A stretch of 64,000 nt of DNA, from positions 6,015-70,014 of the forward strand of contig JANNAN010000013.1 of assembly GCA_031384385.1 (NCBI GenBank). The letters run 5' to 3'. Shown here one piece after another: positions 33,889-49,898 of the stretch. Source of the DNA: Candidatus Tayloriibacteriota bacterium (GTDB taxonomy: Bacteria; Patescibacteriota; Minisyncoccia; Phycocordibacterales; PALSA-1337). Numbering within the stretch: position 1 is the stretch's first letter; every line of letters starts with the position of its first letter. The translations under genes were made by a program, and so were the position numbers. The notes beneath the pieces are model-generated. The model saw nothing but the letters and a program-made list of their open reading frames with translations. It ran no database searches and was not told the DNA's origin.

Positions 33889-34278
33889 ATGGAAAAGAAA
33901 TTCAAACATTTAGAATTTATCCAGTCAGTCATTAATAGAATGACAAACAATTCTTTTTTACTGAAAGGTTGGTGTTTGAGTATAATTGGAGCAATTTTTG
34001 CACTTAGAGGTGGAAATTCCTCAACCAGCATACTTCCACTCTTTGTAATTATGTTTTGGCTTCTAGATAGTTATTATCTTTCTCAGGAGAGACTATTTAT
34101 TGCTTTATATAACGACGTCGTTCCTAGATCAGAGGATAAAATCGATTTCTTAATGCATACAAAAAAGTTTTGTAGAGGAAGAAACACATGGTGGAGATCA
34201 TTTTTTTCTCATACCCCTGTGATTTTCTACGGATTTATTTTGATCGTAATCATATTTATTAATTCTAATTCTATATAG
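33889..34278 (+). CDS. small 3-TM membrane protein (candidate membrane effector partner of the downstream TIR protein)
   Basis: 129 aa. Amphipathic N-terminal helix then three hydrophobic helices. 10 bp after the phosphatase gene and 4 bp before the TIR-like gene. Confidence 0.5.
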   Translation: MEKKFKHLEFIQSVINRMTNNSFLLKGWCLSIIGAIFALRGGNSSTSILPLFVIMFWLLDSYYLSQERLFIALYNDVVPRSEDKIDFLMHTKKFCRGRNTWWRSFFSHTPVIFYGFILIVIIFINSNSI

Positions 34279-34282
34279 ATTT

Positions 34283-34768
34283 ATGGCAAGAAAAGTATTT
34301 TTTAGTTTTCATCATCAGGGCGACATATTGAGGGTAGGGCAGATTCGTAATAGCTGGCTTCTTAGAGATGAGCGCGAGGATCTGGGCTTCGTAGATGCGG
34401 CAGCATGGGAATCAATTAAAAGAAATGGTGATGAGGCTATAAAGCGATGGATCGATACTCAATTAAGTGGAACATCTGTTACGGTTGTGTTGATTGGACA
34501 AGAAACTGCTAGTAGACCGTGGGTCATTCATGAGATCATTGAGAGTCATAATAAAGGAAATGGGCTTTTGGGTATAAGAATACATAATGTTAAAGATTTG
34601 CACGGTCGCTACTCACTCCAAGGATCTAACCCGTTCGATCAAGTAAGTATCACTTCTACAGGTAAATCCTTGTCTCAAATTTACCCTGTCTATGACTGGG
34701 TAACAAACAATGGACGTGAAAATATGCCTATTTGGATAGAAGAAGCTGCACGAAAAGCGAGCAGATAA
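34283..34768 (+). CDS. TIR-like domain protein of the DUF1863 / Thoeris ThsB-like family
   Basis: MARKVFFSFHHQGDILRVGQIRNSWL..FVDAAAWESIKRNGDEAIKRWIDTQLSGTSVTVVLIGQETASRPWVIHEIIESHNKGNGLLGIRIHN..SNPFD follows the conserved ThsB/DUF1863 signature (KxVFFSFH, W..D..L..VL.G.T..WV..EI..G...GI.I). Confidence 0.65.
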   Translation: MARKVFFSFHHQGDILRVGQIRNSWLLRDEREDLGFVDAAAWESIKRNGDEAIKRWIDTQLSGTSVTVVLIGQETASRPWVIHEIIESHNKGNGLLGIRIHNVKDLHGRYSLQGSNPFDQVSITSTGKSLSQIYPVYDWVTNNGRENMPIWIEEAARKASR

Positions 34769-35317
34769 TTATTGTTGATTTAATGATTCAGCTATAGGTA
34801 CAAACCTCCACTTCTGGTTTTGATAGGATTTTATCCCATCCTTATTTACAAAATCGAGCATTGTTTCGAGCTCGTGAACACTAAAGGGATATTTAAAACC
34901 TTGCTTATCGAAGCAAGTATATTTGTCATTCCAACCCTTCTCAATAATAAATGAATGTGCCATCTCACCAGTTTCCGCATCAAGAATTTGACCGACATAG
35001 AATTTCCCAGGCTCACAGTTCATGGCTGCAAGCGAGTATAAGGATTTGATATCCCCAACAAGAGTAAATGGTGCACCTGAAGTGTCCCGTACCTTTTCGC
35101 CAAAAGTAAAATCAAGTCCAGCATCCTTTTGTGCTTGTGAATCCGAAATCATTTCTTCCCATGAGATGCGTCTGATCACATATAGAACAAATTTATGACA
35201 ATTAACATTTTTTATCTTATCATTCGAAACAGGAGGGATAGTATTCCAGTTGCCCGCATCATCTTTTGTTAGAAATTTATCTTTCATATTGATTATAATA
35301 TTACCACATTGACACAC
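34769..35317 (-). CDS. hypothetical protein, possibly papain-like Cys/His peptidase (start likely at internal MKDKF)
   Basis: Convergent with TIR gene (stop codons abut). Candidate Cys (AMNCEPG) and His (AHSFII) in papain-like order. Weak. Confidence 0.3.
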   Translation of the reverse strand: MCQCGNIIINMKDKFLTKDDAGNWNTIPPVSNDKIKNVNCHKFVLYVIRRISWEEMISDSQAQKDAGLDFTFGEKVRDTSGAPFTLVGDIKSLYSLAAMNCEPGKFYVGQILDAETGEMAHSFIIEKGWNDKYTCFDKQGFKYPFSVHELETMLDFVNKDGIKSYQNQKWRFVPIAESLNQQ

Positions 35318-35386
35318 TTGAGTAGAAATTAATCAAACAAAAAAGCGTTGGTCAGACGCTTTGAAATTTTATGACCTGAGGAACTG

Positions 35387-35986
35387 CTATTTAGATTCCT
35401 CGTGAAGCTCGTCCATCTTTTTGTGGATTTCCTGAGCTTCCTTCAGGGTGATGACAAACGGATCGTCACTTTTCTCCGGCAATTCCAACTCGGAGATACC
35501 CGCACCGAGAAAACAATACTCATTTTCTTTCTGATCATAAGTCTCCCCAGGATCTAGTATCGTTCTCCCATGCCTCTTGATCGGTGTGCGCGTAGTCTGT
35601 CCACGCAGACTCCCCATCTTTTCCACCACCTCAAGTCGCAACTTCTCGATCTTACCTCGCACTTGTGCGACCCTCATCTTTTCGACCGTTTCCGCTGTGG
35701 GTATGTCGGTTTCCTTTTCGGGAAACAAACGGGGATCTACCGACCGAAGGATGGAGAGCAGATCGGTGAGGGATCGGTAGGTGACATACTCGTCAGTACC
35801 GAACTCTCCCGACTTCTTATTGGCTGTGGGATCGACTTTCACAGTGACTGCGTAGTCATCGTGAGAAGGGTCAAACCTTGACTCCTGAACCGTGACCCAG
35901 CGAGGATTTGTGATTTTCCTTACTGCATCATGGAAGTTGCCGATTGCACCGCTTGGGACACCTGCGATTTTCAATGTGATAACCAT
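35387..35986 (-). CDS. hypothetical protein
   Basis: 199 aa, GC-rich island composition, no motif. Confidence 0.4.
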   Translation of the reverse strand: MVITLKIAGVPSGAIGNFHDAVRKITNPRWVTVQESRFDPSHDDYAVTVKVDPTANKKSGEFGTDEYVTYRSLTDLLSILRSVDPRLFPEKETDIPTAETVEKMRVAQVRGKIEKLRLEVVEKMGSLRGQTTRTPIKRHGRTILDPGETYDQKENEYCFLGAGISELELPEKSDDPFVITLKEAQEIHKKMDELHEESK

Positions 35987-36045
35987 ACAAACCTACCTTT
36001 CTTTTTTGCATACGCACCGCGTATCGCAAATACTTACACCGTAAG

Positions 36046-36118
36046 TTCCGATTTCGTCCTCGTTCTCTACCACAAGGCAGAGGGACTCATCAGCGAGAAT
36101 AACATTCTCGGATCGAAA
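36046..36118 (-). ncRNA. hammerhead ribozyme (type III topology) HHR-1
   Basis: Minus-strand RNA: UUUCG-AUC|CGAGAAU..AUUCUCG-CUGAUGA-GUCCC..(extended stem II)..GAGGAC-GAAA-UCGGAA. CUGAUGA and GAAA cores, AUC cleavage triplet, three closing stems. Confidence 0.75.
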
Positions 36119-36124
36119 AGGTTT

Positions 36125-36574
36125 TTAGAGAACCTTTGAAACTCTTGATACCGCTACTATGCCAACGAATACGCACCAAATGGCAAGAAAGACGAAACAG
36201 AGTAGCACGACCGTTTTGCTTCTTCCATCGCCATATGCACAGTACAAGTCTGATCTTAGACCAGCTTCTTCATACATATAGAAGAATGAGCAGAAGATTA
36301 TCCACAGAAATGCAAATGATGCTGTCGTTGATACCATACCGTTGGTGATAAGCACGATCGTTCCAATGGGTATGAACCAAGAGGACCAGCTAATGACACC
36401 ATCGTACGGCAGAAGGTGATAGAGCATCCAAGCAGTTGCGCCTCGCCTTGGGTCCCACAGTACATTGCTGTACTTGCGGGAGTACTGATACAAACACCAC
36501 CATGTAACTGACAGTGTCCAAAGCAGAATAATAATCGTAATTTTCACAAAGAACTCCTTTCTCAAAGAATCCAC
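36125..36574 (-). CDS. hypothetical 4-TM membrane protein
   Basis: 149 aa with four hydrophobic helices. Confidence 0.45.
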   Translation of the reverse strand: MDSLRKEFFVKITIIILLWTLSVTWWCLYQYSRKYSNVLWDPRRGATAWMLYHLLPYDGVISWSSWFIPIGTIVLITNGMVSTTASFAFLWIIFCSFFYMYEEAGLRSDLYCAYGDGRSKTVVLLCFVFLAIWCVFVGIVAVSRVSKVL

Positions 36575-36637
36575 GACTTCATGTCATGAACTCTATAAAG
36601 TGGACATTTGAGGAAAATGTCCGAACCCCCGATTTGC

Positions 36638-37495
36638 CTAACTGTTGACAGCCTCGAGGAGCTTGTTCCAGTCTTTCGCGCCGGAAGGCGTGGAGCAATG
36701 ATTGGTGCATACCACCTTGACGTCACCCTTGGCAAAGCCGCGGAGACCATCGAAGGCGAATACGAACGGATCATCGTGATGGTTGCCGGCAGTGATAATG
36801 CCGATCTTCTTCACACCTTTTTGAATGGCGTGGAGCGCGATGATGGGTCCGTAAGGCATGACACCCTGACAGTTAACCATTGCCTGACCTCTCGGTCCCA
36901 TGCAAGCATAACCACCCTTGGGAATCATGCAGTCGGTGAGGACTACTTCCGGCTGTCGTTCAAGTGCGTCGAGCGCCTGATCGAATCCAGAAACGATTGT
37001 GAGATCGTATACTCCAAGAAGCTCCTTCGCCGAGGCGATATTTGCCGGATCATCTTCCACTACGAGAATGCGAGTCTTACCCGCAGTTCCGATGGCTTGA
37101 ACGATCACGTCATCCCTCCAATCATTGAAGGGTATCACGCCGGTCTTGTGAACGGCAACTTCACGGACACCTTCCATGAGTTGAGCGAAGATTTTCGCCT
37201 TGCTCGACTTTTGCAGTCTTCGAGCAATTGAAGCCGAGGCTTCATGAGGATCGATGGTCTTGTACCAGTCGTTTCCCTCTGGATGCGTCCAAGCGTCGAG
37301 GAGAATGACGTCGGCGTCAACAGCTTCCTTGATGAAAGCCTCAGCGTGATCTCCATGGAGATATCCGCCGAAGCCGACATAGGTGAGCTTCTGACCAGTC
37401 TTCTCTTCGAGATCCCGATGAACGACACCGCCTGGTCCATACAAAGGATCATTGGTGCCGTGATTTGCCATGCAATGAAGCAGAATCTTTTTCAT
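36638..37495 (-). CDS. hypothetical protein with central CheY-like receiver (REC) domain
   Basis: ILVVEDDPANIASAKELLGVYDLTIVSGFDQALDALERQPEVVLTDCMIP fits the REC consensus including acidic pocket and D-phosphorylation position. Flanking N- and C-regions unrecognised. Confidence 0.5.
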   Translation of the reverse strand: MKKILLHCMANHGTNDPLYGPGGVVHRDLEEKTGQKLTYVGFGGYLHGDHAEAFIKEAVDADVILLDAWTHPEGNDWYKTIDPHEASASIARRLQKSSKAKIFAQLMEGVREVAVHKTGVIPFNDWRDDVIVQAIGTAGKTRILVVEDDPANIASAKELLGVYDLTIVSGFDQALDALERQPEVVLTDCMIPKGGYACMGPRGQAMVNCQGVMPYGPIIALHAIQKGVKKIGIITAGNHHDDPFVFAFDGLRGFAKGDVKVVCTNHCSTPSGAKDWNKLLEAVNS

Positions 37496-37524
37496 TCGTT
37501 TCTCTTTCGTTGTTGATTGTTATG

Positions 37525-37603
37525 TAAAGAACTGAACTCTCAGGGTTCGCGACATCAGTCGTAAACCCAGTTGAGTCCCTGTAACCATTGCTAGTCACAG
37601 GGG
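37525..37603 (-). ncRNA. family-1 structured element E1 (two-hairpin motif, unknown class)
   Basis: Minus-strand: hairpin2-ACUCAACUG-GGUUUACGAC-UGAU-GUCGCGAACCC-UGAGAGUUCAGUUCUUUAC. Shares linear motifs and covarying 11-bp hairpin with six other copies. Confidence 0.55.
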
Positions 37604-37623
37604 TTGAGTGAGATTTCAGGTAC

Positions 37624-37983
37624 TCACTTCATAAACTCGAAATGGATCTCAGTGATCCAGTCGAAATCGAATTTAACCTCGCGTACAGTCAAACCCATTT
37701 TTGCCGCCTCCTGTTGGAGGATTTCTTCGGCATGTTTAAGTTTCTCAGCCTTGCCATTTCCTCGCAAGTACGCCGGAAAGACGATCTTTCCAGAGGTATT
37801 GAGGAAGCGTTCACACTCAGGTTTCTCGGCGAAAATGAGAAACTGATGATTCCAACCGAAGTACGCATACAGGTTGGTTGTGAGTGACGGCTGTGCTGGT
37901 CTCGGACGTTTGTCGAGCATCCTGTGGCACCTTTCGGTAACTTGCAACAGGTCATGATCTTGAAGTGCGCTTGCGTCTACCAT
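37624..37983 (-). CDS. hypothetical protein (start at MVDASALQD)
   Basis: ATG 37983 with AGGAG 6 nt upstream. The track ORF start at 38049 lies inside element E2. Confidence 0.4.
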   Translation of the reverse strand: MVDASALQDHDLLQVTERCHRMLDKRPRPAQPSLTTNLYAYFGWNHQFLIFAEKPECERFLNTSGKIVFPAYLRGNGKAEKLKHAEEILQQEAAKMGLTVREVKFDFDWITEIHFEFMK

Positions 37984-38013
37984 AGTTTTTATCTCCTGGT
38001 TTGATTGTTGATG

Positions 38014-38092
38014 TAAAGAACTACTGAACTCTATAGATTCACAACACATTCGTTATGAATCTAATAAAGTCGGGGAGGTTTTTGAAGTCTCC
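38014..38092 (-). ncRNA. family-1 structured element E2
   Basis: Minus-strand 11-bp perfect hairpin AGAUUCAUAAC-GAAUGU-GUUGUGAAUCU flanked by ACUUUAUUA and AGAGUUCAGUAGUUCUUUAC. Second hairpin GGAG..CUCC. Confidence 0.55.
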
Positions 38093-38148
38093 TCGATTTT
38101 GAAAGTTTTAGACTTGCGTCACCGTTACTTCACGGAGTGGGTTGACCA

Positions 38149-38361
38149 CTATTTTGTTTCGGTCTTCTCCACAATCACCATTGCGACATGATAGGTATGC
38201 ATTGCGCATGGCATCTGGAGTGGCTCCCGCATCTCACCCCAAGGGGCGATTGCGTAGGACGACGAAACAACCTTCCAGCCCGGCCCAAGTTTCTCAAGTT
38301 CTTCATTGAGTTCGGGCTCAGGTGTTGCATTCATCGTTTTAACGATAATGGTTTTCAACAT
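38149..38361 (-). CDS. hypothetical 70-aa protein
   Basis: Start MLKTIIVK chosen downstream of element E3. The track ORF begins inside E3. Confidence 0.3.
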   Translation of the reverse strand: MLKTIIVKTMNATPEPELNEELEKLGPGWKVVSSSYAIAPWGEMREPLQMPCAMHTYHVAMVIVEKTETK

Positions 38362-38424
38362 AAGAATAGTCTTTCTGTACTGGTGTATTGTTTCGGCACA
38401 CCTACTTGAAGCCGTTTTATATTC

Positions 38425-38504
38425 CAAAGAACTGAACTCTGAGAGCTCACAACGGATTTGTTGCGAACTCAGTAAAGTGCTCATTTTAGGTGAATGAGCA
38501 AAAC
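38425..38504 (-). ncRNA. family-1 structured element E3
   Basis: GGUUUUGCUCAUUCACCUAAAAUGAGC-ACUUUACUG-AGUUCGCAAC-AAAUCC-GUUGUGAGCUC-UCAGAGUUCAGUUCUUUG. Compensatory changes relative to E7 (G-C to A-U). Confidence 0.55.
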
Positions 38505-38517
38505 CGAATCGAGCAAA

Positions 38518-38925
38518 CTACTGAACCTTTCTCCAGCACAGAGCCGGATGTTCGCTCGGGCCACCACCGTGGTCGAGGTGATAGAAACATAGACCATCAT
38601 TCTGGTTGGCCAAGCCGAGGCTCTTCATTCGCCTGGCGTGCCTGCCGAGGTAGTATCCGATCCTATCGTTCATGTTTTCACGACAGTCATACAAAGTGAT
38701 CCATCCTTTGTACTTTCGGAACTCCTTGTGTTTGAAGATGCTCACATCCCGGATCTGCGCGGGGATGTGACCGGCAGCGTCGGATGCTTCCTTGGCATCA
38801 CGATGCGTTGACCGATCTAGGCCAGCCTTCGCTTTGAACTCTACGAGATAGTATTCCATACCATCGTGAGTGAAAAGCGTAGGTTGCGGAATTGCGGTGA
38901 ACTTCAGACTTTGCGTCGCATTCAT
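38518..38925 (-). CDS. hypothetical protein
   Basis: 135-aa ORF, no motif. Confidence 0.4.
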   Translation of the reverse strand: MNATQSLKFTAIPQPTLFTHDGMEYYLVEFKAKAGLDRSTHRDAKEASDAAGHIPAQIRDVSIFKHKEFRKYKGWITLYDCRENMNDRIGYYLGRHARRMKSLGLANQNDGLCFYHLDHGGGPSEHPALCWRKVQ

Positions 38926-38980
38926 TATTTCGTTTCTTTCTTGGTTGAGTTTGTTTGTGATTACTAAATTTGAAAGAGCT

Positions 38981-39029
38981 TTCTGTTTCGTCCTTCTGGA
39001 CTCATCAGTCGGAATACATTCCGAGACAG
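38981..39029 (-). ncRNA. hammerhead ribozyme HHR-2
   Basis: Minus-strand: CUG-UC|UCGGAA-UGUA-UUCCGA-CUGAUGA-GUCC-AGAA-GGAC-GAAAC-AGA. Minimal ~49-nt hammerhead with GUC triplet. Confidence 0.8.
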
Positions 39030-39099
39030 TCGGTCAGTAAAAATTTACCGACCATTCACACAATTTTTAGGTAGTGTGCGTACCTCTATGTGGTAGAAC

Positions 39100-39390
39100 T
39101 TATTTTCCTTTTGATTCGACCAGGGAAACGTAATTTTGAATCCCTTGTTTAACCAATTCTTCAATAAGTACCACCAACGGGCATGGATGATACTTTTCAG
39201 TATCCAATGCCATTGTTGCTTCCACAAACGCAACTGCGTCTGTGAATTTGTAACCTTCATCAGTTGGGACAATGAAGATCGTTTCTCTAACTTCCTCTCC
39301 AGCGATACTGGAGCCGTCATCAAACTCTCCTCGAGTTGGGCGGAAGCACAAGCTCACCCGACCTTCCTCGTTCACACGCAATCCCATCAT
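39100..39390 (-). CDS. hypothetical 96-aa protein flanked by two hammerhead ribozymes
   Basis: Start MMGLRV at 39390 just downstream of HHR-3. The track start 39456 lies inside the ribozyme. Confidence 0.4.
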   Translation of the reverse strand: MMGLRVNEEGRVSLCFRPTRGEFDDGSSIAGEEVRETIFIVPTDEGYKFTDAVAFVEATMALDTEKYHPCPLVVLIEELVKQGIQNYVSLVESKGK

Positions 39391-39416
39391 ATATATAAAG
39401 AGCAGTCGTTGTTGTG

Positions 39417-39497
39417 TTCTGTTTCGTCCTTCACCTTGGCTTCGTCTGAAGCACAAGGGGACTCATCAGTACAGATTATATCTGTAGACAGAAGGGG
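39417..39497 (-). ncRNA. hammerhead ribozyme HHR-3 (extended stem II)
   Basis: Minus-strand: CCCCUUCUG-UC|UACAGAU-AUA-AUCUGUA-CUGAUGA-GUCC-(long imperfect stem II CCUUGUGCUUC..GAAGCCAAGG)-GGAC-GAAAC-AGAA. Confidence 0.75.
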
Positions 39498-39576
39498 CTA
39501 GATTTAAATCTTGCCCCATTTTATGACAATTCTTGAGCAGGTAGTCATCATACCTTCTAGCACTGCATGCCAGCCT

Positions 39577-39641
39577 CACCATTTCAAACGGTGACATTCA
39601 CACTCTTCTGTAACAAAGGTTAGAGTGATCCTTTGGTAGTC
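39577..39641 (-). ncRNA. family-3 conserved element (copy a), downstream of stop codon
   Basis: ~65-bp block CACCAUUUCAAACGGUGACAUUCACACUCUU..AAGGUUAGAGUGAUCCUU..GUAGUC, ~85% identical to 41206-41275. Contains CACACUCU/AGAGUGAU inverted repeat. Confidence 0.45.
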
Positions 39642-39651
39642 TTTCCTACAG

Positions 39652-40017
39652 TCAGATGCCGCAGAGCGAACGTATCTTGCAAATTTCCCTCAATGTCTGT
39701 TGACGTCCCGGAAGTCCATTCTCAACCCATCCTCCAAATTGCTTCAGAGTGGTGAGAATTTCTTCCCGAGTGCCAGGTTCCCCGATACAAATGGGGATGA
39801 ACTGACGTTTGTCTTCAGACTTAGCGAGGAACTTGCAAGCGATCGGTATTGAGGATTTCACCTGAACCACGGGGATGGTGTTGTCATTGGTAGTGACATC
39901 CAATCCGTGATCATTGAAACCTCCGATTACCTGTACGCCAAATACTTTGGCGTACGCTTTCTCTAGCTCGGCACCGACGAATTCCTTCGTCACTCCCATG
40001 GTTTTCATAGAGTTCAT
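39652..40017 (-). CDS. hypothetical protein
   Basis: 121-aa ORF, no motif. Confidence 0.4.
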   Translation of the reverse strand: MNSMKTMGVTKEFVGAELEKAYAKVFGVQVIGGFNDHGLDVTTNDNTIPVVQVKSSIPIACKFLAKSEDKRQFIPICIGEPGTREEILTTLKQFGGWVENGLPGRQQTLREICKIRSLCGI

Positions 40018-40064
40018 AATATTATGAGATGTGGTACCGAGTTAGGCACCGTTGTTGTTTACTG

Positions 40065-40328
40065 TTATCCGTAGGTGACCGATGACTGTCGCAGAGATCG
40101 AATGAGAACAGGGAAGATGAGTAACGGATGCTTAAGCATGAATTTTGCTTTTTCTTTGCCTTGAAGGTGTCGAGCTGCGATGAGAAGAACAACTTCTCGG
40201 CTCATCGCTTCTTGACCCTCCACCTTGCATTCCGTAAATATCTTCTGAGCCTTTTCGTCTCCTTGGTGTCGCCTGACGCGATCCAGAATATCAGTAAGTA
40301 ACATTTGGTATTTCGTGTTGTTTTTCAC
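40065..40328 (-). CDS. hypothetical protein
   Basis: 87-aa ORF, helical, no motif. Confidence 0.35.
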   Translation of the reverse strand: MKNNTKYQMLLTDILDRVRRHQGDEKAQKIFTECKVEGQEAMSREVVLLIAARHLQGKEKAKFMLKHPLLIFPVLIRSLRQSSVTYG

Positions 40329-40494
40329 AAAGAGCTTTCCTCAATGAATCCACCAGGTCCAGCACACGCTGGCTGACGGACTCAATAAAGGACTTTTTTC
40401 AATACTTCTACGATGTTACTATTATAGCATAGTATATACTACTTGTCCAGTGTATTGTTAAATATAATGAACAGGGAAGTATGGCTTATTTTAA

Positions 40495-40546
40495 GGCTGC
40501 TTTCGTCGTTTTCGACTCATCAGTCTGGACAATATCCAGAGAGCAG
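40495..40546 (-). ncRNA. hammerhead ribozyme HHR-4
   Basis: Minus-strand: CUGC-UC|UCUGGA-UAUUG-UCCAGA-CUGAUGA-GUCG-AAAA-CGAC-GAAA-GCAG. Stem II GUCG/CGAC is a compensatory variant of GUCC/GGAC. Triplet CUC. Confidence 0.75.
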
Positions 40547-40596
40547 AGGTTGATTCCGTACAATCAACCTGATTAATGTGAATGCGGTTCGGCGCA

Positions 40597-40914
40597 TTAT
40601 TGACCCTTCAGAAAGGCCATCGCTTCGATCAATCCCATCCCGTGTGCCATTTTGCCATCGGGAAATGAATTGAAGATCTTGAAGCGATCAGATTCAGGAA
40701 TGGTGGCGGCTTTCTGTTTCCACCACAGAACCTGTGCAACGCGCTTGGATGTATTGTCCAAATACACCTGCACTTTTTCTGGTTCATCGGTCATGATGCC
40801 GTCGGCTTCCTGAACCGTCTTCACAAACTCCAAACCCCCGATAGTTGTGAAGATCTGAACGATTGCCTTATGGACAGGACTGTCCGGCGTCGCAAGATCC
40901 AGAAATATTTTCAT
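40597..40914 (-). CDS. hypothetical protein
   Basis: 105-aa ORF, overlaps upstream small gene by ATGA. Confidence 0.4.
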   Translation of the reverse strand: MKIFLDLATPDSPVHKAIVQIFTTIGGLEFVKTVQEADGIMTDEPEKVQVYLDNTSKRVAQVLWWKQKAATIPESDRFKIFNSFPDGKMAHGMGLIEAMAFLKGQ

Positions 40915-41051
40915 ACCTCTTTCCTCCAGTTTTGTTTTTGTTTGTTGCGGTTGTATCCACGGACACCTTTCGGAGTTCCGTAGGGTTTACCGATGAAAAG
41001 AGTTTGCTTGCGCACACTCTTCATCGCCTTCAACTGAATTGTATTGTTCAT
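40911..41051 (-). CDS. 46-aa basic protein (upstream partner in a two-gene cassette)
   Basis: MNNTIQLKAMKSVRKQTLFIGKPYGTPKGVRGYNRNKQKQNWRKEV. Track ORF extends further 5' into ribozyme-flanking sequence. Confidence 0.3.
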   Translation of the reverse strand: MNNTIQLKAMKSVRKQTLFIGKPYGTPKGVRGYNRNKQKQNWRKEV

Positions 41052-41118
41052 AGTAATCTGCCACTGATGATCGCGTGAGTGGCAAGTTGCTATGAACAAT
41101 ATTTTATTTAAAGAACTT

Positions 41119-41172
41119 TTCTGTTTCGTCCTTTCGGACTCATCAGTCGAGACTCGCATCTCGAGACAGAAC
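41119..41172 (-). ncRNA. hammerhead ribozyme HHR-5 (near-consensus)
   Basis: Minus-strand: UUCUG-UC|UCGAGAU-GCGA-GUCUCGA-CUGAUGA-GUCC-GAAA-GGAC-GAAAC-AGAA. GNRA loops on stems I and II, GUC triplet. Confidence 0.85.
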
Positions 41173-41205
41173 GAATCCTTTGATCCGTAGCGCTGCACGC
41201 CAACT

Positions 41206-41275
41206 CACCATATAGATACGGTGACATTCACACTCTTTTGAATAGAAGGTTAGAGTGATCCTTCTTTTTGTAGTC
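41206..41275 (-). ncRNA. family-3 conserved element (copy b)
   Basis: See 39577-39641. Lies between stop of 41289-41705 and HHR-5. Confidence 0.45.
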
Positions 41276-41288
41276 AGACAAGCTGACA

Positions 41289-41705
41289 TCATAACCAAGA
41301 CAGTTGTTCCCTTATATCCGGATTTCGCTGATCGAATACCGGATTTAAAGAGATTTCCTGTTTGGCTAGACTAGTGAAACCATCTACGCCGTCAACAACC
41401 TTTCCTTTGGAATCATGTCTGATACTCAGCTCAGTTCCTCCGGTAAAATTATTGGCTGCGAATTGTTTCAAGAAGGCTTGCACCTCCTCTCGCAATTTGG
41501 TCTCAGCAAAAGGTTCCTTATCTACACTCACAATCTCGTACGTATCTTCGGCGTATGAATTTTTTTCATCGCCACTCTGATCGTACCAGCTGTATGAGTG
41601 CTTCAGGTAAACCCTTCGGCCAGCAAGTTCAATGACAAATAGAGATTCACCTCCACCGCCATTACTTGCCCCCTCGTCATGACTACGAATAACGAACGCT
41701 TTCAT
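41289..41705 (-). CDS. hypothetical protein
   Basis: 138-aa ORF, Gly-rich N-terminal segment, no motif. Confidence 0.4.
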   Translation of the reverse strand: MKAFVIRSHDEGASNGGGGESLFVIELAGRRVYLKHSYSWYDQSGDEKNSYAEDTYEIVSVDKEPFAETKLREEVQAFLKQFAANNFTGGTELSIRHDSKGKVVDGVDGFTSLAKQEISLNPVFDQRNPDIREQLSWL

Positions 41706-41792
41706 ATCTCACCTCCTTTCGTTTTGTTGAGTGTTTATTCAATGAGGTGGAGGATTAGGGATAGAACCCAATCCTCCCAACGACACCCGAAC

Positions 41793-42065
41793 CTAATCAG
41801 GGTCGATCAATATGTGGGCGATCGCGAATGGCCCACCCCAGTCTTCACCGGGATTCACCATTCCATGATCGTGCGTGCACATCAAGGTGGTGGATTTCGG
41901 TGTCGGATAAAACTTTGCAGGATTATCCGTGAGAATCCAGTCTGCTCCTTCTGGAGACGAGACGAACTCCCAACCGTCGGAACGCAGCATTGTCTTGCTG
42001 CCTGTGATCTTTTCGATCAACTCCTCTTTTCCGACCGCGACTTCGATATACATTTTTCGGGGCAT
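41793..42065 (-). CDS. hypothetical protein
   Basis: 90-aa ORF immediately downstream of element E4. Confidence 0.4.
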   Translation of the reverse strand: MPRKMYIEVAVGKEELIEKITGSKTMLRSDGWEFVSSPEGADWILTDNPAKFYPTPKSTTLMCTHDHGMVNPGEDWGGPFAIAHILIDPD

Positions 42066-42088
42066 AAATTCTACTTGTTGATTGTTTG

Positions 42089-42169
42089 AAAAGAACTGAA
42101 ATTCTATGAATCTGCGACTTCAGTCGTAGACTCAATAAAGTGCAGATTTTGATGGAATCTGCTAAAACC
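42089..42169 (-). ncRNA. family-1 structured element E4
   Basis: GGUUUUA-GCAGAUUCCAUCAAAAUCUGC-ACUUUAUUG-AGUCUACGAC-UGAA-GUCGCAGAUU-CAUAGAAUUUCAGUUCUUUU. Confidence 0.55.
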
Positions 42170-42852
42170 TGACCTCTAGCAATAGTGATCCACACGGATC
42201 GTATTGAAAGAGTAATCCCACCGACTCCCCGAGTACCTCTGATATCTCCACTTTCGTGAAAGTGTCAGTAGGCGACTGCGCTCTCGCTTGGAGAGCCGAC
42301 GACCTGTGTCGTCTGCGAACTTCAGTGTTCGCGATCTCCTTCTGTGGGAGATATCGAGTACACCATCGGTGGTGCTCGATTTTACAGGCTTAAAGCCAGG
42401 AAACTGCACCGTTGCACTACCGTATGATGTACTCATATTTTTATTTCGGTTGGTTGTTTTTGAAATATTCGCAGTTCGGAATCACCATGAATGTTCCTTG
42501 ACCAGGTACACACTCACAACTATCCGATGATGTATAAGAGATGGGGTTGTTATCCCGCATGAGGTTATGCCTCTAATCTCCCGTACACCTTGTTCTTTCC
42601 AGGGATGCATGCCCACGTAACGAACGTGGATTGGTCGAGCATTCCCTTTCGACAACAACCTTTCGGTTGAGGTGAAAGAACTAGAGCCCTACAAAATTCT
42701 GCCAATCTACTGAAAACCCTTGCAAGTTTTCTAAGTAATCGGAGCTAGAACAGTGTAGACCCCACACAATGGCTTCTGCGTAGCCTGTGCATATAACTGT
42801 CCTTAATAATTAATTCAGACCAATTATATGCACAAGCATTTCAAAATTTATT

Positions 42853-42931
42853 TAAAGAACTAAACTCTTTGGGCCAGCAACATTGTTGTAAGCCCAATAA
42901 AGTGCAGATTTTGATGGAATCTGCGAAAACC
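42853..42931 (-). ncRNA. family-1 structured element E5
   Basis: Same hairpin-2 sequence as E4 (GCAGAUUCCAUCAAAAUCUGC). Hairpin 1 GGGCUUACAAC-AAUG-UUGCUGGCCC. Not followed by an ORF for >400 nt. Confidence 0.5.
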
Positions 42932-43005
42932 ATTTGCTTTTCGGGGTTGATTATTGTCCGATAGCAGTGCGACTCTTTTTTGTTAGGAAAAGAGCTAGAG
43001 AAACC

Positions 43006-43395
43006 TTAGTAATCAAGAGGGTGGCATCTGTGCCCGACGCTCTCGCCCCATTTGTTTCTTTCAATCGGAGATTCGAGACCTCCAGACCGATAGAGACATT
43101 TGGTACGCGAGACCGCCAAGGCTTTGATGACATCGTCTCCGATCGTCCCTCGACGCACGAACTGCTTGCGCAAGCGGCGATATTCACGCGGGTTCTTGAT
43201 CAAGCCTAAGCTCTCACAAGTATCCCCGTAGTGACTACCCCGATTGTCGACAGCAATTGTGTGCCTGAAGAACAACCGTCGACCCTCGACCTTGAACGAG
43301 ATGACCCTGTAAGGGATCAGGCTCGCCCAATGGTGGTCCCTCGTGAACCTCTCCGTATGGATTTTGATTTCCATGGTTTGATTCGTTTTCATAGT
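43006..43395 (-). CDS. hypothetical protein
   Basis: Start taken at MKTNQTMEIK inside track ORF 43006-43416. Basic, no motif. Confidence 0.35.
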   Translation of the reverse strand, partial: TMKTNQTMEIKIHTERFTRDHHWASLIPYRVISFKVEGRRLFFRHTIAVDNRGSHYGDTCESLGLIKNPREYRRLRKQFVRRGTIGDDVIKALAVSRTKCLYRSGGLESPIERNKWGESVGHRCHPLDY

Positions 43396-43631
43396 TTCTC
43401 TATTTTTAATGTGCAAATTGGGCTGGCACCAGGGCTAGACTTCTTCAAGTGGCTAACTTGATAAAGCTTTCGCCGTGATGCCAGGAGAGTTTTTTGCGGG
43501 CTCTCAAACCGCCACATAGTACGACCGGCCAAGGTCTTCCTTGCTATATCTCCGTCTTTCAGGAGCTTCCAAGTGACCCTTAGAGCCCTTGGCTGATTTT
43601 CAGCAAATCTCATGCTCGCTACTTCTCGCAC
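43389..43631 (-). CDS. hypothetical protein
   Basis: 80-aa ORF, weak. Confidence 0.25.
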   Translation of the reverse strand: MREVASMRFAENQPRALRVTWKLLKDGDIARKTLAGRTMWRFESPQKTLLASRRKLYQVSHLKKSSPGASPICTLKIEKL

Positions 43632-43804
43632 TTTCGTGCAGTAGCTTCACACAAGTTCTCTGGTCGCGTGCCAGAGGGGATAGTACCGCCAACCCGGATG
43701 GGTCCGTATAGCATCTCCCTTCGGCCAAACACCATGTGAGTGTTCTGCCCTATGGGTATTCGAATTTCGAGTACCCATTTCGACAGAACACAATTTCAAG
43801 AAAC

Positions 43805-43859
43805 TTCTGTTTTCGTCTTTCAAGACTCATCAGTCGGAATACATATTCCGAGAACAGAG
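43805..43859 (-). ncRNA. hammerhead ribozyme HHR-6 (1-nt insertion at cleavage triplet)
   Basis: Minus-strand: CUCUG-UUC|UCGGAAU-AUGU-AUUCCGA-CUGAUGA-GUCU-UGAA-AGAC-GAAAAC-AGAAG. Stem II GUCU/AGAC compensatory variant. Extra U and extra A suggest a slightly degenerate copy. Confidence 0.65.
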
Positions 43860-43931
43860 AGACGATTTGCATCATCCCAGTAGTTTCCGCTCACCAAGCG
43901 CCCTGGAGCTACCCCAGAGAATTACGGGAGT

Positions 43932-44294
43932 TTAATGACTTCCATGGTCAGTCGAAGCGAGAACACTACGGTGTACCCACTGCACGGCTCCAAAGCCGGT
44001 GTCGTAGGATCTCTCGTAGTACACTGTTGCGTTTACATGCACAGGCTGGCCGTTGGTGAAGCCAGTCTCACCGGGAAAAAATCCCTTTTTGCCTTTGATT
44101 TTTCCTTCGAGAAAACGGACTTCGATTCCGTTCGCGCTCACCTTGGAAACAATTCCGGTGGCACTCGCTTCCTCACTCCATTTTTGTGGAGTAGCCAACT
44201 TTTTTGGTAAAGTGGCATAGAAACCGAAACCGATCAGGGCAAAGCCCAGAACAACCAAGAGAACCGCTAATGTCTTCTTCATAGAACTCTCCAT
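43932..44294 (-). CDS. hypothetical secreted/membrane-anchored protein
   Basis: Signal peptide/TM MKKTLAVLLVVLGFALIGFGFYA. Confidence 0.45.
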   Translation of the reverse strand: MESSMKKTLAVLLVVLGFALIGFGFYATLPKKLATPQKWSEEASATGIVSKVSANGIEVRFLEGKIKGKKGFFPGETGFTNGQPVHVNATVYYERSYDTGFGAVQWVHRSVLASTDHGSH

Positions 44295-44301
44295 TTTAAT
44301 T

Positions 44302-44380
44302 TAAAGAACTGAAATCTATGAATCTACGACTTCAGTCGCAGACTCAATAAATTGATCATTTGAGGATTAATGATCAAACC
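44302..44380 (-). ncRNA. family-1 structured element E6
   Basis: Fills the whole intergenic space. Hairpin 2 UUGAUCAUU..AAUGAUCAA (different sequence, same fold). Hairpin 1 AGUCUGCGAC-UGAA-GUCGUAGAUU. Confidence 0.55.
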
Positions 44381-44381
44381 G

Positions 44382-44636
44382 TTACCCCATTTTGCACCGC
44401 AGGATTTTGCGGCAACCTCTTGCGAGAAGGTCACTCAGCCATGCTGCCCAGAGCGAACGTCGCCAGAAGCGCCGAAGCAGAAGGTATATAACCAGCGCCT
44501 CGATCACCAACGCTACCACAAGACACACGAGTGTCAGACAGTAGACGAAGGTTTCCGGAAATATTTGCCCCAGAGTAGCCTGCGTAAGTTTGTAGAGCAT
44601 TTCCATGCTCTGTCGCATTATTTCATTGAGTTGCAT
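44382..44636 (-). CDS. hypothetical small membrane protein
   Basis: 84 aa with one long hydrophobic helix. Confidence 0.4.
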   Translation of the reverse strand: MQLNEIMRQSMEMLYKLTQATLGQIFPETFVYCLTLVCLVVALVIEALVIYLLLRRFWRRSLWAAWLSDLLARGCRKILRCKMG

Positions 44637-44700
44637 AGTGAGCGAAGCTCAATTCTTGAGCGTCATTCACTACACAACTCTAATGTAAAGAACCGCAGAA

Positions 44701-44775
44701 GTATCTGCACTATGCCGCGCCTCCGTTTTTTTAATATAATTATATAGTTTATGAGGCGCGAGATAGTGCAGACAC
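44701..44775. repeat. large imperfect palindrome (23-bp arms, AT-rich 29-bp centre)
   Basis: GTATCTGCACTATGCCGCGCCTC ... GAGGCGCGAGATAGTGCAGACAC. Confidence 0.5.
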
Positions 44776-44783
44776 ATTTTTAT

Positions 44784-44862
44784 TAAAGAACTGAACTCAA
44801 TGGATTCACAACATCAGTTGCGAACCCAATAAAGTGCTGATTTTGAGAAAATCAGCGAAAAC
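44784..44862 (-). ncRNA. family-1 structured element E7 (most upstream copy)
   Basis: GGUUUUCGCUGAUUUUCUCAAAAUCAGC-ACUUUAUUG-GGUUCGCAAC-UGAU-GUUGUGAAUCC-AUUGAGUUCAGUUCUUUAAU. Confidence 0.55.
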
Positions 44863-45540
44863 TGCGCGCGATGCCTCATCCTAAGATCACCGTTAGGTGA
44901 TAGCCAGTTATTCAGCAAAGCTGTTACTGGTGATGAAAGCTGGTGGAGGCTCAATGGCCACAACCATCACATTTTTATTTAAGGCTGTGTACACCCACTC
45001 CAATTTGTCCTTGGAGTATTCATGATTATTTTTTCGTACCCTCATGACTGGACGGAGTGGACTAGCAGGTAGCTGTTGCTACGACTTGATGTGTCAAATT
45101 CCCGAAGGAACCAAGACTTCCATCATCTGCTATCCACCCATATTTTTTAGGTACTATGGGGTCGCGACACTCCCTGTACCATATTTAAATCCAAATTATT
45201 TTGATTCAAATACGGTACAAGGAGAAAAACTTATTTCAAGTGAACTGTTTACATGTCAATCGTTCTGGGGTGTAGTATAGCAGATACAATAATTTTGTCA
45301 AGTATAATTAACACTTTATACCTAAATACAGCAAATATAGCCCTATAAATATGGATATTTAAGCTATATAAGAGTTATCAAGAAGTGACATATTATAAAT
45401 AATTTTGACAAAGTCAAAATGTAATTTGAAATAAAATATTTCTGTTAAACAATAAAAACATGATAAAAAGGCATAAAATGAATGTTTTCTTGTATCTATG
45501 GCTTAAAATATGGGGTTTATTATGAAAATGACAATAAAAC

Positions 45541-45568
45541 TTGACAAATACAATACATTTGCTATTAT
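45541..45568 (+). promoter_or_regulatory. near-consensus sigma70-type promoter (TTGACA-16 nt-TATTAT) reading rightwards
   Basis: TTGACA at 45541-45546, TATTAT at 45563-45568. Confidence 0.45.
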
Positions 45569-45669
45569 AGTCATGGAAGTGAGTGGTGAGCAGTACATGC
45601 TCTTAAAAGAGTGCCATTCACAATCCCATTAACAAGGAGGACACAATGAGCGACTAGAATGTCGGTAAG

Positions 45670-45710
45670 TACCGTCTTCTAGTGGACCTCATTGGCACTA
45701 GAAGACGGTA
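45670..45710 (+). other. perfect 15-bp inverted repeat hairpin (no U-tract) downstream of promoter and mini-ORF
   Basis: TACCGTCTTCTAGTG-11 nt-CACTAGAAGACGGTA, preceded by AAGGAGG-ATGAGCGACTAG (M-S-D-stop). Confidence 0.45.
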
Positions 45711-45937
45711 TTGAAACCGTTCAAGTCGGATCCTCCGAGTAGTATGGGAAATTGAAAAGAAAGGAAGGTAGGTATGTGTGATTAGCTCAAAAACCGCAGT
45801 GTGTGTTGTCGTGACCGAAAATTCGGAAAAGATCAACATGAAGAAAACTCCATCGGCGAATATTGATCACATTAGCGCTCTGTCAAACAGCGCCTGAAGG
45901 TCTCGATCAAAAGCTAGTTCCCAGGCTCCAATCGTCT

Positions 45938-46696
45938 TTACGGTTGGAGCCTCTTCTTTTTCTCATCAAAGCCAACATTGAAGATACTTCTGAATGTTTC
46001 TGCGAATTCCTTACTTCTTATAAAAATACCAGAAAGTTTTTTGCCAAGAATTGCAATTTTAACACGGTCTTCACAGATTGATATATCACATAATATTGGA
46101 TACTTATCTGCATCTACCTTCACCCTCTCACCGTCTTCACTTGTAGGGACTTCTCCATTTTTGTAAGTATACATTACTTTAGATTTGATGTTTTTACCTA
46201 GGCGCATACCTCGATATCTATCTCGCTCTTGTTTCGAAAATATTTCATCAACTAGATCCTTTGAGTATATTAAATAGCTGATGGCGTTTTCATTTTGTCC
46301 AAGAAAAAACTCTTCATGTAGACTTACCAATCCATCTCGACCTTCAAAATATTTTACGATAGGTTTTTCACCACCCTCTCTCTGAACACTCTTTATTTGA
46401 GGAATGACATCCTTTAATTTCTTTGACTGTTCATCAAGCATTATTTTTCGCTGCTCAACATATGTCTCTAATCTTTCTGGCGGCTCAGCTTGGTAATGAG
46501 TTTTCTTGCCAACTGTGGTTTCGGTCACCAGACCTTTTTTTGCAAGAGATTCCAACACGACATAGGTAGTCGATCGATTTAATTTGGTCTTTTTTGAGAG
46601 ATCAAGCACAGAGCTGTTCTCCATAGAAAGCAATGATATATAAACAATTGCCTCCTTCTCGCTCAGCCCGATGTCTTGTAGGTATTTTTCCAACAT
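45938..46696 (-). CDS. TrmB-family transcriptional regulator
   Basis: N-terminal HTH LGLSEKEAIVYISLL..SVLDLSKKTKLNRSTTYVVLESLAKKGLV typical of TrmB. AT-rich host-like composition. Confidence 0.6.
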   Translation of the reverse strand: MLEKYLQDIGLSEKEAIVYISLLSMENSSVLDLSKKTKLNRSTTYVVLESLAKKGLVTETTVGKKTHYQAEPPERLETYVEQRKIMLDEQSKKLKDVIPQIKSVQREGGEKPIVKYFEGRDGLVSLHEEFFLGQNENAISYLIYSKDLVDEIFSKQERDRYRGMRLGKNIKSKVMYTYKNGEVPTSEDGERVKVDADKYPILCDISICEDRVKIAILGKKLSGIFIRSKEFAETFRSIFNVGFDEKKKRLQP

Positions 46697-46720
46697 GCGA
46701 TTATATTAACATTGAAATCC

Positions 46721-47023
46721 TTAAAACGGAAGGGTCCCTGATAACTGGGGTGGTTCAACGAGATATTTCTCAATCAAATAAATCTCCTGCAAAAGACTGA
46801 CATAGTGCTTCTCATCCAGCTCATCATTTTTGAATTCTACCTTCTGATTTCTTTCGTTCACTTCAAGATAGATTCGACGTTTCTTATCACCAAAATCATA
46901 TAGTGTGAGTATGGTAAAAGATCCATCAAGTTTTTCGTTATACCAGATGATGGCATACTCGCCACGCCAGATGTGAGCATTTTTTCTTGCATCTTTAAAC
47001 GGATCAATGTTATACAAAGGCAT
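46721..47023 (-). CDS. hypothetical protein
   Basis: 100-aa ORF co-directional with the TrmB-like gene. Confidence 0.4.
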   Translation of the reverse strand: MPLYNIDPFKDARKNAHIWRGEYAIIWYNEKLDGSFTILTLYDFGDKKRRIYLEVNERNQKVEFKNDELDEKHYVSLLQEIYLIEKYLVEPPQLSGTLPF

Positions 47024-48890: not shown

Positions 48891-49898
48891 TTGAGTAGCA
48901 TCGAGTGGGCTTTTTGGTTGGCTATTATGTTATTCAAAGATGCAATAAACGAATTCAGTGGCTGGAGACAGATCAAGGTTTCCGGTCACACAGTTATAAG
49001 ATACGATAAAGTATTGAAGATTTTTTGTCTGTACCTACGCAACCCACACATTGAAGCCATAACGCTCAATGATGTGATGAATTATTTGAATATGATGAAG
49101 GAGCTCGGATGGAAACGAAACGGCATAATAATTGTAACTTTGGCGCTAAAGAAATTCTTTGAGTTTTATAACTTGCAGAAGTTCAACGTAATCAATGAAT
49201 CTCTCATACCCACCCCTCGCAAAGAATACAACATACCACGCATCGCAACAGAGCAAGGATATAAAAAACTTATTAACTCGATACCGAAGGACAATAAACC
49301 ACATCACATTAGGAACCGCGCATTGATGGCTTTACTCTGGGATACTGGTGCTCGAAATGGGGAGATCATATCACTCAATGTAAGTGACCTTGATTTAAAC
49401 AAAAGGACTGCGTTGATCAGAACTGAAAAGTCCCGCGGACGTAGACCGATCCGTGAAATATTCTGGACACCGAGTACGAATGCGCTCTTGAAAAGATGGG
49501 TGAAGAAAAGAAAGTATTTGTTACAACTCTTCACCTTTGAAGATCTCGATTCATTATTTGTATCAATTTCTAAATGCGGTCAAAATGCTGTCAGGGGACG
49601 TAGAATGTCCGTTGTTGGTGTTGCTGAAATGTTGCGCACTAATTCTAACCGTGCAGGTATACCAACCTTGAATGCACACTCGATGAGACATTTCATGGGG
49701 CGAGATATTGTGAATAGGGGTGGATCAAATTCTGATGTCTCAAACATTCTTGGCCACTCTAGTCTAGAAAGTTCGATGATTTACACTATGATGACAGGTC
49801 CCGATCTTCACAGGAGATACGATATGTTTCGGGATGTGCCGAGGAACCAGAGAGCAAAGAAATATAAAATTCCCAGAACAAGAGCTATTCATTGCTAA
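48891..49898 (+). CDS. tyrosine site-specific recombinase / integrase
   Basis: 335 aa. Catalytic R..HxxR..Y region (HSMRHFMGR, ILGHSS, IYT). At the island end adjacent to displaced gap-terminus copies. Confidence 0.75.
   Translation: MSSIEWAFWLAIMLFKDAINEFSGWRQIKVSGHTVIRYDKVLKIFCLYLRNPHIEAITLNDVMNYLNMMKELGWKRNGIIIVTLALKKFFEFYNLQKFNVINESLIPTPRKEYNIPRIATEQGYKKLINSIPKDNKPHHIRNRALMALLWDTGARNGEIISLNVSDLDLNKRTALIRTEKSRGRRPIREIFWTPSTNALLKRWVKKRKYLLQLFTFEDLDSLFVSISKCGQNAVRGRRMSVVGVAEMLRTNSNRAGIPTLNAHSMRHFMGRDIVNRGGSNSDVSNILGHSSLESSMIYTMMTGPDLHRRYDMFRDVPRNQRAKKYKIPRTRAIHC

Follow-up and report, generated by a model that had tools for sequence, protein, structure and literature searches.

What lies between two near-identical repeats in a small-gene island of an uncultivated, ultra-small bacterium of the candidate phyla radiation: an RNA, a protein, or both? 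The question is posed by a segment at positions 42176-42931 of a 64,000-nucleotide stretch of a Candidatus Tayloriibacteriota genome (contig JANNAN010000013.1; hereafter the window, to which all coordinates refer unless a locus is named). The segment is bracketed by E4 and E5, two copies of a repeat of about 80 nucleotides that we call family-1. The original prediction took it for some 650 nucleotides of GC-rich, non-coding DNA without a convincing open reading frame (ORF), possibly a cassette carrying a non-coding RNA rather than a protein. Through comparison with related loci we find that the segment is indeed a unit with a structured RNA, and that it has a protein gene as well: 42437-42852 (416 nucleotides) is non-coding as supposed, whereas 42176-42436 codes for protein. 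The window is cellular genome of about 30% GC, in which an island at about 35000-45000 has 43-50%; the segment, with 33-58% GC per 100 nucleotides, is rich in GC relative to its host and otherwise resembles the rest of the island. The argument turns on the following features:

42176-42436, minus strand: gene for a conserved basic protein of 86 amino acids (MSTSYGxATVQFPGF ... RRLSKRERSRLLTLSRKW ... PFNT), recognized by its homologues and by the ratio of non-synonymous to synonymous substitution rates (dN/dS)
42437-42852, minus strand: non-coding leader RNA, 416 nucleotides, recognized by homology, covariation and stop codons in all frames
42853-42932, minus strand: E5, family-1 junction element, 78.6 bits with the covariance model R1
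42089-42170, minus strand: E4, family-1 junction element between the cassette and a gene for 90 amino acids (41793-42065), 80.3 bits with R1
42133-42894, minus strand: 762-nucleotide insertion/deletion (indel) unit, absent from the related loci L002-L006 (or any 762-nucleotide frame ending within a 30-nucleotide stretch identical in E4 and E5)

A conserved gene and its structured leader

The ORF at 42176-42436 had been set aside as Arg/Ser-rich low complexity; it belongs instead to a protein family that is rare (about 27 clusters at 50% identity) and well defined. A search of 5.8 billion proteins returned eight full-length homologues of 84-100 amino acids, with 47-74% identity, query coverage of 91-100% and E from 1e-32 to 7e-12, and a profile search of 1.84 billion representatives gave 28 hits (25 clusters at E<1e-10). 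Family members are 80-100 amino acids long, and the motifs MST.YG and FPG and most residues of the RRLSKRERSRLLTLSRKW block are invariant in their alignment. The first homologue of the whole unit, in a Candidatus Paceibacterota metagenome-assembled genome (MAG; L014, tblastn E = 1.7e-9), was reached through a scan of GTDB genomes with the repeat pattern; its ORF begins MSTDYGHATVQFPGF where the window has MSTSYGSATVQFPGF, with a succession of synonymous changes at third positions. Every pair for which dS was computable has a dN/dS of 0.09-0.30, and on this comparative evidence purifying selection acts on the ORF, which always stands directly 3' of the RNA domain. The protein has no match in Pfam, PHROG or NCBIfam. 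Its AlphaFold model (predicted local distance difference test, pLDDT, 67) contains several beta strands as well as a basic helix that spans residues 50-65.

The composition of the ORF points the other way. Its codon usage scores -0.09 bits per codon, compared with +0.07 to +0.33 for the 20 called array genes on which the codon model was trained, and its GC content is lower at first than at second codon positions (GC1 < GC2); the exact product is on record for neither assembly of the genome and so was apparently never called. These are the grounds on which the ORF might be spurious and the whole 680 nucleotides a non-coding RNA cassette or, in a variant of that view, a decayed pseudogene. We consider this extremely unlikely, because the family conserves both length and motifs, its members differ by runs of synonymous change (for example against L014) and dN/dS stays at 0.1-0.3; against the pseudogene variant, the leader is kept by compensatory changes while all of its frames are closed in every homologue. 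The Arg/Ser-rich composition accounts for the atypical codon usage, over which the comparative evidence prevails. A call of 'non-coding' from codon usage and GC phase had been misleading, and was overturned by the homologues and dN/dS.

Far from lacking conservation, the leader has a homologue 5' of the gene at all 11 other distinct loci (L014, L051, L053, L056, L059, L060, L061, L063 in part, L067, L068 and L069), where the stretch preceding the gene measures about 380-510 nucleotides, typically about 420-450, and aligns with 42437-42852. No gene is called within this gap in eight of the 11, those with visible gene calls, and every sense frame contains 2-11 stop codons in all 10 aligned homologues. 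An open frame of 170 codons, broken by one UGA, was considered with UGA read as a sense codon and rejected, since the host ClpB and topoisomerase I are intact under the standard code; the frame was rejected too because its upstream part is closed in the homologues.

The leader alignment folds with RNAalifold into 85 pairs and 12 helices. Standard pairs fill 92.4% of the alignment cells, as against 35-47% when the partners are slid by 1-3 columns, and 47 of the 85 pairs are changed on both sides (11-19 with slid partners); covariation scores 0.448, as against 0.08-0.12 after sliding, and none of 500 column shuffles reaches the observed values. Conservation of structure across homologous islands, the natural check on an RNA proposed from a single sequence, is thus borne out. 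Identity to L051 is 72% across the leader and about 48% at the synonymous sites of the adjoining gene, which argues that the leader itself is under selection. The structured parts and the linker that follows them are:

42784-42836, minus strand: helix 1, a hairpin of 21 base pairs directly after the junction element, 13 of the 21 with compensatory changes
42470-42780, minus strand: multi-helix domain closed by CGCAG (42776-42780) pairing with CUGCG (42470-42474)
about 42685-42761, minus strand: hairpin arm of variable length, one closed hairpin in all 10 homologues, with differing sequences
42585-42685, minus strand: central domain, helices 4-7, with a nested stem at 42601-42647; GUUCUUUC pairs with GAAAGAAC
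42437-42469, minus strand: A/C-rich unpaired linker from the closing helix to the start codon, in which no conserved pairing is predicted

The closing helix is near-invariant, with a single homologue of the 10 departing from it at one pair, and the junction inside it carries a small hairpin (helix 3), the variable arm, the central domain, a long helix 8 and a 3' domain of helices 9-12. The nested stem on which the original prediction had rested is present as helices 6 and 7 of this conserved structure, on the minus rather than the plus strand. An internal AGTTCTTTC (42674-42682) was considered as a degenerate cassette border and rejected: it pairs with GAAAGAAC and shows compensatory changes in L053.

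Neither the leader nor family-1 matches any family of Rfam 15, at the gathering score across the whole window or at E up to 10 across 34000-47000 and 42060-42960; besides hammerheads, the matches at E up to 10 are chance-level hits to snoRNA and miRNA families. A leader pattern gave 44 matches in IMG/VR, none of them encoding the protein and all, on that ground, due to chance. With at least 12 helices, the leader is a new and previously undescribed RNA family.

A covariance model of the central domain, R2, scores 108 bits in the window and matches once per locus, exclusively directly 5' of a homologue of the 86-amino-acid ORF (ORF86), with no match elsewhere in 224 kilobases; three of the matching loci lie outside its training set, namely L059 (74 bits), L014 (49 bits) and L063 (truncated). 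The RNA domain and the gene thus occur together, adjacent and in fixed order in 12 of 12 gene-carrying loci. This association bears on the view that the leader is a separate trans-acting RNA gene, cut out by the ribozyme or family-1 element on its 5' side and by another cut on its 3' side, and working independently of the small protein, which is merely co-transcribed. Such an RNA would suit a self-contained domain closed by CGCAG/CUGCG, followed by some 35-50 unpaired nucleotides before the start codon, and 12 or more helices are more complex than is typical of cis-regulatory leaders. We nevertheless think it unlikely, given the invariable adjacency and order, the absence of any other copy of the domain from 224 kilobases of related arrays and the absence of a conserved processing element or terminator between leader and gene.

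The start of the gene bears equally on the role of the leader. The AUG lies about 35-50 nucleotides beyond the closing helix, and the linker contains a Shine-Dalgarno-like GAAAGG box in six of the 10 homologues and AAAAGG in L069; an internal box of the leader, GUCGAAAGG, resembles the ribosome-binding box ACGAAAGGA of most homologues. No ribosome-binding site or start codon falls within a conserved helix, and no conserved pairing occurs 3' of the CUGCG strand. With its start codon outside the conserved fold, the leader is therefore not a simple switch that sequesters the ribosome-binding site. A riboswitch-like cis-regulator, which would sense a ligand or signal and control translation or stability for the downstream gene without involvement of the encoded protein, is in keeping with the position in the 5' untranslated region, the multi-way junction and the many near-invariant unpaired nucleotides (GUCGAAAG, GACCAA, GGAUAG, CUGGUCA). 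The exposed ribosome-binding region and AUG tell against it, as do the very large size of the leader for a riboswitch, a downstream gene without metabolic annotation and the fact that neither a terminator nor an anti-terminator alternative is seen, and we regard it as improbable.

Junction elements and the proposed cutting of the array transcript

E4 and E5 are copies of one repeat family, as had been proposed: both score strongly with R1, which was built from 16 repeat copies, and they share an identical stretch of 30 nucleotides, GCAGATTCCATCAAAATCTGCACTTTATTG on the minus strand, at 42133-42162 and 42895-42924. The family-1 consensus on this strand runs GGUUUU, hairpin A, ACUUUAUUG, hairpin B, CAUAGAG and UUCAGUUCUUUA, and E5, read 5' to 3', displays it thus:

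at the 5' end, minus strand: GGUUUUC
42904-42924, minus strand: hairpin A
42895-42903, minus strand: linker ACUUUAUUG
42865-42894, minus strand: hairpin B and closing strand
42853-42864, minus strand: tail UUUAGUUCUUUA

Pairing in hairpin B and its outer helix (CUUUAU with AUAGAG) stands at 96% over 54 distinct copies, with both sides altered in 12 of 15 pairs. Many of the G.U pairs would become C.A mismatches if read on the plus strand, and 59 of 60 R1 hits lie on the sense strand of the arrays. A consensus scan flagged hairpin A with ACUUUAUUG as terminator-like (7 base pairs, 3 of them G-C, with ACUUUAUUG as tail); the stem is weak, and the outer helix of hairpin B is predicted to take up the U tract after it, through pairing with AUAGAG. 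A family-1 pattern found six matches in IMG/VR, all chance and none with hairpin B, and 30 single matches in GTDB genomes, most of which look like chance apart from L014, L018 and L024; in an R1 scan of nine of the GTDB-pattern loci, only these three contained a family-1 element. The window itself has an extra, divergent copy with a long insertion in hairpin B at 40328-40420 (minus strand, 34.5 bits) and, at 41706-41792, an apparent remnant consisting of a hairpin-A-like stem and linker only.

The place directly 5' of the leader is taken by family-1 in the window, L014 and L053, and by a type III hammerhead in eight of the 11 homologues. Four of the latter (L051, L056, L060 and L068) match Rfam Hammerhead_3 at E about 3e-5, below the gathering score; L059 has a marginal Hammerhead_HH9 match (E 0.0099) whose 3' end overlaps the start of the leader; and in L061, L067 and L069 the hammerhead core CUGAUGAG...CGAAA was read by eye. 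Both kinds of junction end in AG(U/A/C)UC(U/A)UU. E4 and E5 are not hit by Hammerhead_3 even at E up to 10, and the hammerhead core boxes (CUGAUGA ... GAAA) are absent from the 54 distinct family-1 copies aligned; what the two share in position is only the outer helix, in the place of stem III, and the 3' AGUUCUUU. Since a hammerhead stands at the same position in most homologues, family-1 is probably an equivalent RNA-processing element, either self-cutting or a site for a protein RNase. It is a new junction motif and a candidate ribozyme.

The limits of the mobile unit emerge from L002-L006, five related islands from other samples, which align with 44697-42895 at 97-99% identity and then with 42170-41793 at 90%, lacking exactly one 762-nucleotide repeat period. 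Behaviour as a unit, part of the original prediction, is upheld in this respect; the flanking repeats do not travel whole, however, as the border cuts midway through each family-1 element. The single element of L002 joins the left flank and hairpin A of E5 to hairpin B of E4, which places the crossover within the shared 30 nucleotides. The cassette therefore has two terminal modules:

42853-42894, minus strand: 5' module, hairpin B and CAAAGAGUUUAGUUCUUUA, in the position of the type III hammerhead of most homologues
42133-42169, minus strand: 3' module, the 5' half of E4, comprising GGUUUUA, hairpin A (42142-42162) and linker ACUUUAUUG (42133-42141)

In L051, L053, L060, L061, L063, L067, L068 and L069 the homologous gene is likewise followed by this hairpin A (GCAGAUU..AAUCUGC), and in loci that share it hairpin B and the next gene differ. 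Hairpin B of E5 (42865-42894) recurs before unrelated cassettes (L061:4292-4374 and L043:5457-5536), indicating that the halves of a junction have been exchanged one without the other; the crossovers are likely to have fallen in the conserved ACUUUAUUG and AGUUCUUUA blocks. On this comparison family-1 is composite, hairpin A and the linker ending one cassette and hairpin B and the AGUUCUUUA tail beginning the next.

Two further observations concern the borders of homologous cassettes. After the homologous gene of L014, a reverse-strand transposase-like ORF of 337 amino acids (L014:4242-5255, minus strand of the locus) replaces hairpin A, and the protein C-terminus diverges at this ORF; it looks like an insertion that truncates the 3' end of the cassette. 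Directly upstream of the cassette in L051, L059, L060, L061 and L067 stands a gene family of about 133 amino acids, followed by a conserved element of about 70 nucleotides and the hammerhead; the gene lies about 500-1100 nucleotides 5' of the ORF86 homologue in these five loci, and is not upstream of the cassette in the window.

Cassette indels with the junction inside the repeat, and repeat halves shuffled independently, are also what would be expected if the repeats, and perhaps the stems, acted as DNA: family-1 would then be an attC-like single-strand recombination site served by a nearby tyrosine recombinase, and RNA processing would be irrelevant. The small, promoterless cassettes in one orientation and the Xer-like recombinase at 48891-49898 agree with this, and G.T wobble pairs would be tolerated in folded single-stranded DNA as well. 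With 41.6 bits for TIGR02249, whose cut-off is 265, the recombinase is, however, no integron integrase, its best matches being generic Xer models, all below their cut-offs; it stands at the end of a phage-like element, four genes from the array, and some arrays (L053) have no recombinase within 6 kilobases. In place of a single imperfect palindrome running from end to end with RYYYAAC/GTTRRRY cores, family-1 has two separate hairpins, and its ends (GGUUUU ... AGUUCUUUA) neither complement each other nor conform to attC cores. Hammerhead ribozymes, which act as RNA only, fill the same junction position, and the leader is left unexplained; we hold a purely DNA-level role to be quite improbable.

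Our preferred reading is one of RNA processing. No sigma-70-like promoter was found by a consensus scan of 41700-43500, and transcription of the array would start upstream, on the side of the TrmB-family gene, and yield a single long minus-strand RNA. Hammerheads would cleave this RNA at their own junctions and an equivalent event would cut it at those with family-1, and each released copy of the present cassette would begin with hairpin B and the structured leader and end with hairpin A. The leader may then serve as a binding platform for the basic protein encoded just downstream, in autoregulation or in a ribonucleoprotein (RNP); binding by the Arg-rich protein is the most likely role that we can propose, and is speculation. 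The segment would accordingly be one complete cassette of a hypervariable, same-strand small-gene array in an integrated phage-like element, and we judge this account as a whole, from the cassette, leader and gene to the cutting of the array transcript and the RNA-protein step, to be on balance probable. In a bolder form, which we put forward as a doubtful conjecture, family-1 would stand in for hammerheads at Patescibacterial cassette junctions as a self-cleaving ribozyme of a new class, cutting at the cassette border, and the leader of about 420 nucleotides would be the RNA subunit of a new RNP with the 86-amino-acid protein, excised by these ribozymes.

Several points must be set against this account. 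The minus strand of 42437-42852 folds more stably than its shuffles (z = -6.1; plus strand -3.0), but minus-strand z-scores are about -2 to -7 in 200-nucleotide windows almost throughout the island, coding parts included; folding being so common there, stability alone does not distinguish the leader. The leader structure is drawn from just 10-11 distinct sequences. The linker in the window has GAAAUAAAAAU and is without the GAAAGG ribosome-binding box. The case for cleavage at family-1 is an indirect one, made from positional exchange, strand specificity and covariation. The AlphaFold model is of modest confidence, at the pLDDT given above, and has no significant structural neighbour, and RNA binding by the protein is conjecture.

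The array and its surroundings

The small ORFs of the island lie on the minus strand throughout and are separated by type III hammerheads or by family-1 repeats. Away from the studied cassette, whose own junctions are family-1 elements, the array in the window contains five to six hammerheads identified with Rfam:

41118-41172, minus strand: type III hammerhead, above the Rfam gathering score
39416-39494, 38980-39032, 43805-43859 and 40495-40548, minus strand: type III hammerheads, E 1e-4 to 6e-6, just below the gathering score
36052-36112, minus strand: type III hammerhead, weak

Adjacent to the array are a TrmB-family regulator (45938-46696), a Trp-repressor-like gene and a phosphoribosyltransferase-like gene, and the Xer-like recombinase described above is close by. 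The wider window encodes ClpB (890 amino acids), topoisomerase I (756 amino acids), GAPDH and UvrB, all intact under the standard bacterial code. An island from another assembly, L001, whose source is SRR20217212, is 100% identical to the window across 35000-46000. On some related contigs the same layout occurs within an apparent integrated phage, with amidase, LysM and large tail-like proteins, and on others in plain chromosomal surroundings; the relatives with names, MAGs of Candidatus Pacebacteria/Paceibacterota, Parcubacteria and Saccharibacteria, point to a host among the Patescibacteria, probably of the Paceibacteria type. Neither the island nor the segment had a BLAST match among 50,697 phage records.

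The array has further features that resemble the studied cassette or its junctions. A repeat of 77 nucleotides, 83% identical between its copies at 41188-41263 and 39558-39633, lies directly 5' (minus strand) of two hammerheads; possibly it is another conserved RNA element, or else it forms the 3' end of one type of cassette. Stretches without coding signal occur at 43417-43804, 44381-44783, 40900-41100, 36125-36546 and 45151-45937, several of which have very stable minus-strand folds (z as low as -7.4). The first lies between a hammerhead and a gene for 128 amino acids, the layout seen for the studied leader; R2 matches none of the five. Almost throughout 35000-45300, coding parts included, the minus strand outdoes its dinucleotide shuffles (typical z -2 to -5) more than the plus strand does. 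The heads of the arrays in L001, L002, L003, L043, L045, L049, L051, L053 and the window (44863-45937) all begin after the TrmB-family gene, which in every related array is followed by 1.2-2.9 kilobases without a called gene.

Adjoining the array on the plus strand, at 34283-34768, is a ThsB-like gene with a TIR domain, of the Thoeris type of defence, identified through L001, where the identical gene has the Pfam match; nearby are a DUF4143 gene and an rve-type integrase. In L061, positions 38-191 (minus strand of the locus) give a near-threshold match to the AdoCbl riboswitch, at 45.7 bits against a gathering score of 50.

Known systems and significance

Bacterial and prophage gene clusters punctuated by type III hammerheads and other small self-cleaving ribozymes were reportedly described by Perreault and colleagues in 2011 and Weinberg and colleagues in 2015. 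They have in common with the present array small same-strand genes of no known function, a phage-like region and intergenic type III hammerheads, whose presumed role is to cut a polycistronic RNA. The array differs from them in that many junctions are family-1 elements that swap with hammerheads, in its Patescibacteria-type host, in cassettes that come and go, and in the large additional RNA domain. A literature search found no paper linking hammerheads with Patescibacteria, nor any report of the motif sequences. The association of ribozymes with genes is summarised in PMC5737381.

Integron arrays with attC sites likewise consist of short promoterless cassettes in one orientation between structured repeats, in which presence and absence with a crossover inside the repeat make each repeat a hybrid of two cassettes. 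The present arrays lack both an IntI integrase and the attC architecture, some of their junctions are ribozymes, and the structure and strand bias of family-1 fit a role as RNA. The nearest published parallel is the DUF1874 RNA motif, a multistem structure that recurs in consecutive intergenic regions and has come under discussion as perhaps an unusual kind of attC site (Weinberg et al. 2017, PMC5737381). Family-1 shares with it both this recurrence and the ambiguity between RNA and single-stranded DNA; the sequences described here have no Rfam match even at E up to 10, and their alternation with hammerheads argues for RNA function.

Among autoregulatory leaders, those of ribosomal-protein genes and of phage genes for RNA-binding proteins are comparable in placing a structured 5' leader directly upstream of a small basic protein, and the GUCGAAAGG box resembling ACGAAAGGA adds to the likeness. 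The present leader is far larger, at about 420 nucleotides and at least 12 helices, its start region lies outside the fold and the 86-amino-acid protein has no recognisable RNA-binding domain. In size, multi-helix complexity and location in mobile or phage-like DNA it recalls GOLLD, ROOL, HEARO and raiA, large structured RNAs of bacteria and phages whose functions are unknown and all of which are in Rfam; it differs in having no Rfam match, in being tied to one small protein gene and in being bounded by a ribozyme or family-1. The early messenger RNA of phage T7 carries RNase III processing hairpins between its genes, and family-1 is similarly a bulged hairpin of about 17-18 base pairs between cistrons, a cut in which would leave protective hairpins on both products; unlike RNase III sites, it has nearly invariant blocks (ACUUUAUUG, CAUAGAG and UUCAGUUCUUUA) that exceed what that enzyme requires.

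Few bacterial RNAs are large and intricately folded with clear covariation, and those that are have time and again opened up new biochemistry. In the leader described here, 12 or more helices are arranged about a multi-way junction; the RNA goes with one small basic protein, itself without significant fold match, and comes from a group of bacteria, the candidate phyla radiation, whose RNA biology is almost unexplored. Its cassette provides a natural experiment, being preceded by a hammerhead in some genomes and by family-1 in others, and this alternation gives good grounds for regarding family-1 as a candidate, either for a new ribozyme class or for a defined RNase site. In appearance the arrays are an integron-style cassette system in which RNA-processing elements take the place of attC sites, and they raise the question of how such cassettes move.

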